Shown here piece after piece: positions 47,755 to 51,934 of a DNA stretch of 64,000 bases. Position 1 is the stretch's first letter; the number at the start of each line of letters is the position of its first letter. The DNA comes from Schizosaccharomyces osmophilus (lineage: Eukaryota), in the NCBI RefSeq assembly GCF_027921745.1, contig NC_079238.1, positions 2,666,001-2,730,000 on the forward strand, written 5' to 3'. A program made the translations under genes and the position numbers. The notes under the pieces are model-generated. The model was not told the DNA's origin and did not search any database. It saw only the letters and a program-made list of their open reading frames with translations.

Positions 47755-47873
47755 GTCTACGGCCACACCTAGGCGAAAACACCAGTTCCCGTCCGATCAC
47801 TGCAGTTAAGCGTCTGAGGGTCTCGTTAGTACTATGGTTGGAGACAACATGGGAATCCGGGATGCTGTAGGCT
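47755..47873 (+). rRNA. 5S rRNA gene (left copy)
   Basis: 119 nt GTCTACGGCCACACCTAGGCG...GCTGTAGGCT, fission-yeast 5S sequence. Confidence 0.97.
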
Positions 47874-48396
47874 TTTCACTTTTGGTTTCCTTTTTGACTT
47901 GTTTTTCTGTTGCTCTTTTAAAAATTGAAGCACATGGCTTTAATCGTGATCGACATAGACGTTTGACTTAGTGATACTAGTGATTGCAGGAAGCAATGGT
48001 CATCCATGATTCAATAATTAATTATATTCCTTATTAGTTAGAAAATAAAAGATTCTATAAGGATCAATAATTAAAAAGTGCTTGACGAATAAATATAAGA
48101 ATCAAAATGCAAAGATGAAACATAAACATAAACATAAACATAAGCAAAAGCATGCTGGAGAAAAAACAACAAGAACGGACATCATAATAAACAACGTTTT
48201 ACTTTATGTATAAATCAATTCCCACCGCTTTCAACATCCCTAGACTGACCCGGTTCCTGGCGTAACCCTGGAGATTGCTCAGTATGTTCAGAGGTATGTT
48301 CAGAGGACGGTTGTTTAAAAGTATCATCACTACGATCGTTGAACTGGTTTTCAGGCTCTGGTGGCAAGCTGTTTAATGGGATACTATTATCATCCG

Positions 48397-49054
48397 TCAA
48401 GTCTTTCTATCCGATGACATCCTGAAGCCTAGAGCACTAATAATCACAGAAAAAATCCCAGAAACAACTAGAGGAATCAATATAACGATTGAATCCACCA
48501 ACACTAAAAGTACCCCATTAGTAAACTTATCAAATTAAAATCCCACCATTCCACTTACGTGAAAAAACAAATAAGAACATATAGAAAGTCATGACGACAA
48601 GAACAGCTGCCACAGTAGCTTGAAACCATGTCCATACAGATTCTTTCATCGGTTCCTTTATAAAGGGGACAAGGTATTTGTATGAAAACCAAAAGTTCAA
48701 TACGATTGAACCAATAAAGCACCAACCAAGCCGAAGAGCTTCATTCTCTTGTCTTCGTTGTGCTTCAGGAATTCTCGCAATTTCTGCCGGCCAGAAAATC
48801 AACCACAATAATGCCGTCAAGACATTTCGTAAAAGAATAAAGAATCCGCTTCCTCCTGTCATGTTGGTAGACGCTTCTTGATGTCTGTTTTCTGAGTACC
48901 GAGGTGCATGACCTTTTTCCAAGTCGTCTAGATGAGAATTCAAGATTTCATTGTACCGTGGCAGTTCACCGTCAAACGTTGCAAGAGTGCCCAAGCGAGG
49001 AACGTCAGCTGAATCAGCATCATTTAGCTTTTTGTATTTGTTTTTTTCAATCAT
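48397..49054 (-). CDS. wag: wtf-associated gene (wag)-like membrane protein; exons 49054-48559 and 48503-48397, with a probable frameshifted tail to 48215
   Basis: ATG 49054 MIEKNKYKKL..LPRY..DDLEKGHAPRY; about four hydrophobic segments; intron GTAAGT..CTAAT..TAG. Head-to-head with wtf inside the 5S pair. Family name assigned from context only. Confidence 0.7.
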
Positions 49055-49990
49055 TTTCTGAAATTCCTTCAAAACCTACTCAAATAGGCAGTAAACACCC
49101 AAATTCATGTCAGAACTTTCAGAACAGTAGCACGCATCTGATCCGACTAACAAGCTTAATAAAATCTACTTTATAACAACTCCGAACTACATGAATCGAG
49201 TCCACAATGGCAATGACTAGAGTTTTGCAGAGGTGAAGCTGTCATTCACCCTCTCTGACACACATACAGATAGCTAGTAAGCGTACGCTATTTTATATAT
49301 ATTTACAATGAATGAACTGTCCGAAATCGCTTTTGTTTGTTTCTATCGTGTAATCAAAATAAATTAAATAAAAAGAAAGATGTACATGTCAGTACAAATG
49401 TTGTTCGTGATATTTTAAGCGTTGCATTTACAGCCTTCCGATGGATTTACGAATGCTGAAAGTAAGGCTACGAAAATCTAGAGTGTTCAATCCTTTTCCC
49501 TGGAATTCATTAAGCCACGGTCACTGAACCTTCCAATACAAAGATATGCATTTCCAATCCTGTGCATGTATCATTCAAAGCAAACAGCATGGTTGTTTTG
49601 CCAAATGTTCCTTTGTTTACTTTTTGTAATAAATAACGACTCTTTTGGATTATACTATTACGAAAGTCATAATGAAAAACCAACGTTGAATAATCGTAAC
49701 GAGGACTGTGACCAGTCAGTGACATAATGTCGCTGCTTTTATGAATTGAGACATGCGAAAAGCCATTACCAAGATTTTTTCAAACTCGCATCTTTGGTTT
49801 TAAGGGAACACTCGTGTTGCAAAACAAATTTTGCTTTTAAGCAAGGTCCAATTCCTTTTTTTGACAGATTTTTGACAGATCCTCGAAAAGTAGAACCAGT
49901 TCCTACGGACTTTTCTCGGCGATTCAAAAGTTGATTTCGTTTAGAGTGTAAATATCGGCGCTATTTTGGGCTCTACTTGCCATTGTAAAT

Positions 49991-51107
49991 ATGAAAAACA
50001 AATATACTCCTATTTCGGATTCTGATGACTCTTCCAAAACGCTCAATGATGAAAAGGTAGATAGTCAGTCGTCTCCTTCTGATGGTACGCCTCCTCCGTA
50101 TTCAGGTAAGATTAGTTGAAATGGAAAGGAAAGGTTTATTCTTTGTGTTCTTGTTTGAACGGTTCATGATGGAAGAATCATGCTTGTTTATTTATTTGAT
50201 GGGTTTGAAACTAATAACCTTGTCGATAAGTGTCAACAAACAGGGCGAATACCTCTATCCTTTTCACAAACAACGAAAGAACAGTTACTAATACATCCAT
50301 TAGCTTCAACCAAATTTATTGATCTCGAAATGGCTCCTGAAACAGAAGAAAGTTCTAAGAAGAAAAGATATCTGACGCCTCGTGAATTAGCAATTGTTTT
50401 TGCTATTTTTATTGTATATAATGTATGCTTGATTATTGCGAGGGTCATTCTTCTTGTTTATGAAATATGGTTTAATCAGCTTGCCGTTTGGGTACTTTTT
50501 GGCGTTTGGTGCGCTCTATTTCTGTCATTGACAATTGGTAAGAAACTAATTTCAGGATTTTTAATGACTCACTAACTATTAGTAATAACTCAAATGCCTA
50601 AAGAATGGTTCACGCAAGCTGGAAGAGCAACCAAAAACGTATTGTCAGCTATGTGTATCTCAGTATTATGTGTGTGTTTTCTCGATGTCCTCGGTTTCAC
50701 TGCGTATTATGCTGCAAAGAAGTTCACAGGATTTGAAAAGATAAACAACAATTTTTTCTATGCTGTTTGTTTTGTTAACTTTGTCTTGTTTCTTTATTTG
50801 ACGAGTATGTCATACACCCGCGAAATATTCTAACTCTTCTAGTGAATGCAAATGCGCGTGAACGACTTAGATTAGTAGTCGTCGATATGGGAAACGGCAT
50901 AGGAAGCGGCATAAATGGCTTAGGAAACGGAATAGGAAGCGGCATAGGAAATGCTGTGGATCATATGTTCGGTATGTACACTTTGCAAATGCTTCCTTTC
51001 GTAACATCGTACTAACCTATTTAGAAGGGACAAATCGAAGAGATGAAGCACCTCGTAACGAAGAAATTGAACTTCAACCTCTTGCTGAGCAAAGGGCTGA
51101 AGTTTGA
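49991..51107 (+). CDS. wtf: wtf meiotic drive poison/antidote gene, 260 aa (exons 49991-50105, 50304-50537, 50583-50804, 50843-50971, 51025-51107)
   Basis: Exon 1 MKNKYTPIS...GTPPPYS; TM-rich exons 2-3 (WVLFGVWC); exon 4 GNGIGSG repeats; C-terminus ...QRAEV*. Four canonical phase-1 introns give an open 783-nt CDS. Confidence 0.92.
50232..50242 (+). promoter_or_regulatory. FLEX-like (Mei4 forkhead) element in wtf intron 1
   Basis: GTCAACAAACA, one mismatch to GTAAACAAACA, ~90 nt upstream of in-frame ATG 50330. Confidence 0.6.
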
Positions 51108-51815
51108 GTTCTACCGAAGCCGCTTTCGTTCTTTACATTCGCTCCTTCTTTGGAAACATTGATGTCAATTGCAGTCTACCAAGTTCCTGTATTCGCTTCC
51201 ACAAAAGCTTAGATCAGATGAACCAGCAGACTTTGATTGCTTTTCTCATTTCTCTTTCATGAATCTTCTTATTCGTTTCACGGCATCGTTCATTTTCTGC
51301 ATGAATAGACACCCTTTTTAATGATTATTTAATTATTCTGAGGAAAATACCATCGTAATTAACTAGTTTTTTCCTCAACACTGTGTCGTGTCTTTCATTA
51401 ATTGTAAGAACGAAACTGATTACCGCCAGAGGTAAAATTCGTTCACAGCATAGAAAGTATAAATCTTCAGATTGGAAGAATCGATTGATGTAGTTTAAAA
51501 CATTGAATTACCGTTTACTTTGGGAGTCAAGTCGACGGACCATGAAAAATTTCAAGTAGAACCCAATTTATATTAAGTAACATTTTCAACCCATAAACTC
51601 ATACACTCAATTGATGCTCCTGCGACCATTATGTGAATCAATAAAAAAGAGAAAACAGTGTGTTTTCAAATATTATTCTTATGATTCGAAAGCATTCACC
51701 ATTTAGCCATGAAAATTACCAGATAGAACTGAGTTGAATTGGATCTTGTAGTTCATCAAAGCAAATAAAAGACTGGATCATTATTGTATAAATATCTTTA
51801 CAGACAATAACAAAC

Positions 51816-51934
51816 GTCTACGGCCACACCTAGGCGAAAACACCAGTTCCCGTCCGATCACTGCAGTTAAGCGTCTGAGGGTCTCGTTAGTACTATGGTT
51901 GGAGACAACATGGGAATCCGGGATGCTGTAGGCT
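51816..51934 (+). rRNA. 5S rRNA gene (right copy)
   Basis: Identical by eye to the left copy. TATAAATA at 51787-51794 and TTTTT terminator. Confidence 0.97.

Follow-up and report, generated by a model that had tools for sequence, protein, structure and literature searches.

The window analysed here is a stretch of 64,000 nucleotides of the fission yeast Schizosaccharomyces osmophilus (NC_079238.1, positions 2,666,001 to 2,730,000), and our subject is a unit within it in which two 5S rRNA genes enclose a wag gene and a wtf gene, the latter a member of a family of meiotic drivers. Rfam recognizes exactly two 5S genes in the window, both on one strand. The two copies agree at 119 of 119 nucleotides, with the identity beginning at the first 5S base and ending in the T-run after the gene, and their starts lie 4061 bp apart. 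The wag and wtf initiation codons are divergent, with 937 bp between them (Table 1). A preliminary description made from the sequence alone had given this anatomy and these gene identities accurately, including the two identical 5S genes in the same orientation, as Rfam, alignment, a protein match and the wag homologs confirm. Its statement that only a divergent gene pair is enclosed holds for the interior; a third lineage-specific membrane-protein gene, related to the DUF999 family, stands just beyond the right 5S gene. Our reading, which we hold with considerable confidence, is that this is an old 5S-anchored locus, wtf12, whose content ectopic gene conversion has probably rewritten in place, with sister units as donors, and that its wtf gene would encode both an antidote and a poison.

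Table 1. Features of the wtf12 locus and its surroundings, in positions of the window
Feature	Position	Strand	Basis or remark
Purine transporter SOMG_01241, left synteny anchor	45638..47344	+	published wtf23 row
tRNA-Ser(AGA), RNA polymerase III (Pol III) neighbour	47519..47600	-	Rfam; 154 bp left of the unit
Left 5S rRNA gene SOMRRNA_36	47755..47873	+	Rfam RF00001, 103.8 bits; Table S5
wag gene SOMG_01242 (wag13 in the other strain)	48215..49054	-	homologs, annotation
wag exon 1; canonical 55-nt intron	49054-48559; 48558-48504	-	exon 1 100% identical to SOMG_01242
wtf gene SOMG_01243, wtf12 (syntenic wtf23)	49991..51107	+	WBW72911.1 match, annotation row
wtf exons	49991-50105, 50304-50537, 50583-50804, 50843-50971, 51025-51107	+	260-aa long form
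PY motif PPPY, residues 34-37, exon 1 (antidote-specific)	50090..50101	+	sequence; motif role from PMC10721834
FLEX-like (Mei4) site, intron 1	50232..50242	+	one mismatch; non-confident FIMO match, P 2.48e-5
In-frame ATG near the start of exon 2, M48, predicted start of 213-aa poison	50330..50332	+	family rule from PMC9562144
Gly/Asn/Ile tandem repeat, exon 4, 21-nt period, 2.7 copies	50890..50951	+	length varies among paralogs
Right 5S rRNA gene SOMRRNA_37, identical to left	51816..51934	+	Rfam RF00001, 103.8 bits; Table S5
DUF999-like membrane-protein gene SOMG_01244, intron 52680-52621	52307..53116	-	outside the 5S pair
tim50 SOMG_01245, right synteny anchor	54922..56262	+	published wtf23 row

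The architecture had been recognized from the outset as a published one, and in fact this exact locus is named in two papers. The spliced wtf product is identical over 260 of 260 amino acids to an S. osmophilus protein (P0047/WBW72911.1). The supplement of Jia et al. 2023 (PMC10085805) places SOMG_01243 between SOMG_01242 and SOMG_01244, names it wtf12, gives it 1117 bp and describes it as 'syntenic with wtf23 in CBS 15792'. The supplement of De Carvalho et al. 2022 (PMC9562144) lists wtf23, also of 1117 bp, with wag13, 5S genes on both sides and the label DRIVER (predicted); the genes bordering it in that row, of 568 and 446 amino acids, match the transporter and tim50 of our window. The exact protein match, the annotation rows and the agreement of both synteny anchors with the wtf23 row establish that the locus is already catalogued. 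In protein, gene length, flanking genes and 5S genes on both sides, we see no architectural difference between it and the published wtf12/wtf23-wag13 locus.

Units of this kind are numerous in S. osmophilus. The published annotation holds 102 copies of the 5S gene, and we counted units from published coordinates, not by DNA alignment, using 94 of the 102 5S rows (rows 23-30 of Table S5 being left out) and 30 wtf rows. Same-strand 5S pairs 3.8-4.3 kb apart number 14, and 13 of them enclose a listed wtf gene; in these units, 2054-2234 bp separate the upstream 5S gene from the ATG, and 455-758 bp separate the stop codon from the downstream 5S gene. By our own count, 17 of the 42 wtf rows in Table 1c of PMC9562144 have a wag gene and 5S genes on both sides. 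Among the 94 5S rows, neighbouring genes less than 7 kb apart share a strand in 31 of 33 cases, and identical same-strand 5S genes are normal in this species. The summed depth of contigs is far higher inside the unit than over its unique left flank, with medians of about 16x in run X1 and 19x in run X2, figures that are not copy numbers. The preliminary description had allowed for a single-copy interior with no 5S-bounded paralogs; what we find is a multicopy interior with many of them. These observations also bear on the proposal that the arrangement results from faulty assembly, or that two dispersed 5S genes came to lie near each other by chance. The runs consist of short-read contigs, among which none of those listed spans the whole stretch, or even a 5S gene with both of its flanks. 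Nevertheless, the identical layout in two independently assembled strains, its recurrence at many paralogous loci, and the 5S genes that flank the syntenic gene of S. octosporus make this proposal extremely improbable.

The repeated DNA does not stop where the unit was expected to stop. Paralogous units had been predicted to end exactly at 5S genes, and at the right side they do not: the repeated DNA overruns the right 5S gene by about 1.4 kb. Contig comparison, which is the single source for this limit, shows multicopy DNA to about 53336, and contig depth is still raised over 52104-53400, with medians of about 6-7x. The overrun contains the DUF999-like gene, which has three annotated paralogs in the genome. 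Of the four genes, three face a wag-wtf unit tail to tail, with stop codons 373, 383 and 473 bp beyond the downstream 5S gene (loci wtf12, wtf11 and wtf19, respectively); for the fourth, the closest 5S gene in the 94 rows is 98 kb away. The other two loci share this neighbour, but their wtf genes reach just 65.7% and 63.1% identity with wtf23 (figures taken from the other strain), which indicates separate histories of shuffling for the coding and the flanking parts. Coordinates and contig depth, not DNA alignment, indicate that a copied unit can run past its 5S gene. Since the DNA beyond the right 5S gene is repeated at three loci, and a circle running from 5S to 5S cannot carry it, a conversion tract or a segmental copy is the kind of event that can. 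A contig of single-copy depth in X1 and X2 joins the end of a 5S gene (47873/51934) to sequence like that at 53338, with a short side of 18-28 letters. A joint in X1 between 47868 and 51907 was considered as an empty allele and rejected, both of its ends lying inside 5S copies. The contigs listed, none of which spans a 5S gene, contain neither a clean empty-site joint nor the joint of a circle.

The site is old and not a recent insertion; it is filled in both sequenced S. osmophilus strains and in S. octosporus. Of the 42 wtf genes, 41 have a syntenic counterpart in the other strain. Only wtf31 does not, its absence from one strain being ascribed to recombination between its flanking 5S genes, and conversion tracts between the strains are shown in the same paper (PMC10085805). 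In S. octosporus the same two anchors enclose a single annotated gene, wtf14, with 5S genes on both sides and no wag gene, and no DUF999-like gene is annotated at the site. The distance from the transporter to the wtf ATG is 1.2 kb there and 2.6 kb in S. osmophilus, and that from the wtf stop codon to tim50 is 2.2 kb there and 3.8 kb in S. osmophilus. Despite its position, wtf14 is only 37.8% identical to wtf23 and ranks 27th among 48 S. octosporus genes, while non-syntenic paralogs within S. osmophilus reach 87.7%. Ordinary orthologs of the two species average 88.9% identity, none of 26 syntenic wtf pairs group as orthologs, and GARD signals are reported (PMC9562144). The low identity of wtf14 and the lack of a wag gene at the syntenic site point to overwriting by ectopic gene conversion.

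A distance of 1.56 Mb separates the two anchor genes in S. cryophilus, for which Tables 1p and 1q of PMC9562144 give conflicting entries on a solo 5S gene at the site. No clean empty allele, that is, a solo 5S gene, was found among the two strains, S. octosporus and S. cryophilus, in the last of which the anchors are split. A locus fixed and syntenic across the clade, which had been named beforehand as evidence against mobility, is therefore largely what we see, up to this separation in S. cryophilus. The interval 45638-56262 is a synteny breakpoint relative to S. cryophilus; the transporter's neighbour there, SPOG_02963, flanks the wtf4 locus in S. osmophilus, a hint of rearrangement through 5S or wtf repeats. 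The S. pombe orthologs of the neighbouring genes also carry identifiers from different cosmids (SPBP4H10.14c, SPAC29B12.14c and SPBC17A3.01c).

The comparison of units suggests how such overwriting may proceed. The 5S genes and the intergenic DNA common to the units would serve as homology arms, and breaks would be repaired from other units. Repair from sister units would homogenise the family and swap segments of wtf genes, and its tracts may at times carry flank from beyond the 5S gene, such as the DUF999-like gene. A crossover between the two 5S genes, expected at low frequency between perfect repeats of 119 bp, would delete the unit and may, as a possible side route, release a circle of 4061 bp. 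Survival and reintegration of an excised circle would be a further step beyond the crossover.

Both routes, gene conversion and circles, have already been proposed (PMC9562144), and both were raised in the preliminary description. The existence of paralogous 5S-bounded units, and the gain or loss at wtf31 mediated by 5S genes (PMC10085805), agree with these models in general; it is the recent arrival of a circle at this site that fits worse than overwriting. In its full form, the circle model makes the locus a mobile cassette without a transposase, popped out by a crossover between 5S genes, reintegrated at a solo 5S gene and brought here in that way. The perfect direct repeats at both ends and the many units alike in size and polarity are what it predicts, and 11 of 12 lineage-restricted 5S-flanked wtf loci match a solo 5S gene in another species (PMC9562144). 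The presence of wtf31 in one strain and its absence from the other speak for it as well. It has to contend with a site that is occupied in S. octosporus as well as in the two strains, and with repeated DNA reaching about 1.4 kb past the right 5S gene at three loci. Moreover, a search of the literature on wtf genes and extrachromosomal circular DNA in S. pombe returned only the paper that proposed the circles (PMC9562144) and a Drosophila preprint. We regard this account of the locus as unlikely. The evidence fits overwriting in place better than recent integration of a circle. With the tRNA-Ser gene, three genes transcribed by Pol III stand within 4.4 kb, an arrangement that may favour the spatial clustering invoked in PMC9562144.

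The wtf gene has an intact frame of five exons and four GT-AG introns, with a coding sequence of 783 nt. For intron 1, an acceptor at 50243 was rejected in favour of 50303, since the latter yields the annotated protein and agrees with the spliced joint. In run X4, contigs lack introns 1, 2 and 3, with joints at the GT-AG ends of the model, and a loose end with poly(A) lies at 51347. This run behaves like RNA, and at 90% likeness it supports the gene model for the wtf family and not for the individual copy. All seven homologs of the exon-2 frame are named 'wtf meiotic driver [Schizosaccharomyces osmophilus]', and by homology and gene structure we assign the gene to this family. It lacks a Pfam WTF match, which is no bar to membership, because the wtf genes outside S. 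pombe were defined by PSI-BLAST and common features at identities of 16% or less (PMC9562144).

By analogy with other wtf genes, the antidote of 260 amino acids would come from a promoter upstream of exon 1, and a poison of 213 amino acids, starting at M48, from a meiotic promoter in intron 1; spores without the matching antidote would die. The PY motif of the antidote would recruit Rsp5/NEDD4-type ligases and sort antidote-poison complexes to the endosome. Rsp5/NEDD4 ligases are the partners of PY motifs, and the antidote, once ubiquitinated, takes the poison to the endosome (PMC10721834). With both the PY motif and the exon-2 ATG in place, drive by wtf12 is predicted.

The adjoining wag gene is likely to be frameshifted. 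Read straight, exon 2 reaches a stop codon at 48399-48397 and gives a product of 200 amino acids. The annotated product of 247 amino acids requires a second intron (48447-48408) of 40 nt with a weak donor, which would mask the shift in the public annotation. Exon 2 matches its paralogs to about 48403 and is then out of frame, while the paralogs run ~60 residues further in frame; in this region, contigs from three runs carry one extra base. Alternatively, the apparent frameshift may be an assembly error in a repeat. The gene's membership in the wag family agrees both with homology and with its divergent position between wtf and the upstream 5S gene. We collected 29 wag homologs, 15 of them from S. 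osmophilus, 8 from S. octosporus and 6 from S. cryophilus; a search of the ESM Atlas gave no usable match for wag.

On the other side of the unit, the DUF999-like protein scores 15.1 bits against the Pfam DUF999 profile (PF06198), below the cut-off of 25. Its relatives score higher (P0052, 30.8 bits; P0055, 28.9 bits; P0054 of S. cryophilus, 41 bits), and it is through these paralogs that we place it in DUF999. The copy at this locus lacks the N-terminal PPAY and the C-terminal NEEIELQ found in its relatives. The C-terminal heptapeptide NEEIELQ is common to Wtf, where exon 5 encodes it, and to P0052, P0054 and P0055, the rest of these proteins being unalignable with Wtf; it may serve all of them as a signal for sorting, or stem from an ancient swap of 3' ends. 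The portions covered of the wtf12 and wtf23-wag13 papers mention neither the likely wag frameshift nor the recurrence of a DUF999-like gene beyond the 5S gene, and neither is mentioned elsewhere in the literature that we searched.

These neighbours raise the question of whether the wtf12 copy is decaying, or survives as an antidote-only suppressor, and no longer drives. The seemingly frameshifted wag gene and the missing PPAY and NEEIELQ of the adjoining DUF999-like copy would be in keeping with decay. Within the wtf gene itself, residue 94 is a tryptophan where all nine other aligned paralogs have proline, and the FLEX-like site is weak. Of the two S. osmophilus poisons that have been assayed, wtf41 is toxic and wtf19 is not (PMC11892871). 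A locus present in both known strains may also have little left to drive against. Set against this are the intact frame with its canonical introns, the PY motif and the exon-2 ATG. The copy in the other strain, of equal length, is listed as a predicted driver, and 14 S. octosporus genes without a confident FLEX match still produce short transcripts (PMC9562144). We consider the loss of drive a tentative possibility, clearly the weaker of the two. At 50461-50470, differences from the paralog contigs cluster within 10 nt and give rise to W94, possibly as a short conversion tract or a multi-base mutation.

An old wtf12 locus, overwritten by conversion and predicted to make antidote and poison, is the reading we prefer, and several points weigh against it. 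On the side of its history, overwriting and the exchange of circles predict overlapping patterns, the site could owe its distant origin to a circle, and fast evolution under conflict also lowers identity. On the side of its function, the FLEX site in intron 1 is below the cut-off of PMC9562144, as are those of all 31 intact S. osmophilus wtf genes in that paper, and W94 is a departure from every paralog aligned. P0047 has no match to Pfam WTF (PF03303), and only 1 of the 10 aligned members gives one, at E 0.26. Finally, wtf23 was not among the two genes assayed, to both of which (wtf41 and wtf19) it is 60-61% identical.

The comparison of the flanking genes suggested a further relationship. 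We compared profiles of 11 DUF999-like proteins and 29 wag proteins with hhalign, which aligned them with a probability of 91-93% and a score of 51-54 over 104-109 columns. The aligned region comprises the PY-like and DLEKG-like motifs together with the first membrane segments. Among the controls, reversed alignments reach 23 and 60 block shuffles at most 27.5; against the wag profile, a score of 40 is kept when only the five most distant DUF999 rows are used. A hidden Markov model (HMM) of the DUF999 alignment, run over 70 collected proteins, recovered 33 wag proteins, the best of them at 31 bits, and 4 DUF999-like ones, but not a single Wtf. On the other hand, none of the 29 wag members matches PF06198 directly, and the reverse HMM search is weak (E 0.5). 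A search of the whole library from a narrower alignment, A2, gave 11 matches, none of them a wag by sequence. Short motifs and hydrophobic segments can mislead in such comparisons. On balance, wag is probably a distant homolog of DUF999. Whereas the right-hand neighbour belongs to PF06198 through its paralogs, wag resembles the family by profile only, without a direct Pfam match.

Two related comparisons gave no support for homology: Wtf with wag (hhalign, 0.4%) and Wtf with DUF999 (3-9%, in the C-terminal NEEIELQ only). A match of a DUF999-like fragment to Pfam WTF at E 0.022 was too weak and was not used. It is tempting to speculate that wag is a diverged branch of DUF999 and that S. pombe thus has relatives of it. 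In S. osmophilus, wtf units would then have recruited this one family of PY-motif membrane proteins on both sides, with wag in the interior and a DUF999-like gene beyond the right 5S gene, and its members would travel by conversion past the 5S genes and help or suppress the sorting of Wtf poison. We would not expect this fuller scenario to be correct. Genes of the wag family have been stated to be absent from S. pombe (PMC9562144), and the DUF999 genes of S. pombe are meiotic Meu5 targets (PMC7712723). The main texts of PMC9562144, PMC10085805, PMC10721834 and PMC11497594 and of the tdk and SOG preprints do not mention DUF999, and no link of wag or wtf with DUF999 was found in the literature at the level of titles and abstracts, curated databases lying outside the scope of that search.

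The 5S-wag-wtf units of S. octosporus are closely comparable to the one described here: wag and wtf are divergent, the 5S genes lie on the same strand as wtf, the spacing is ~4 kb, and spread by conversion or circles has been proposed. The S. pombe drivers in the wtf family (wtf4, cw9; PF03303) share the exon layout, the exon-1 PY motif, the in-frame ATG in exon 2 and the glycine/asparagine repeat. They are only about 13-16% identical to wtf12 in the columns compared and are associated with solo Tf long terminal repeats instead of 5S genes; in contrast to them, wtf12 has no Pfam WTF match and a weaker FLEX site. At fission-yeast centromeres, the five-S-associated repeats (FSARs, CenA; PMC10085805 and SOG preprint) likewise hold cargo between tandem 5S genes and are homogenised by 5S recombination. 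They differ from the wtf12 unit in being centromeric and in their cargo, which is non-coding or hsp16 and not a driver.

In summary, the locus itself adds nothing new to the catalogue of wtf genes, as it is named in two papers and both models of spread are in print. Its perfect repeats and unique left flank make it a convenient test case for deciding between circles and gene conversion in the spread of wtf genes. At wtf12, wtf11 and wtf19, copying tracts that pass the 5S boundary favour conversion over circles. Moreover, the probable link between wag and DUF999 may offer a family tie for the uncharacterised wag genes, and DUF999 can be studied in S. pombe.

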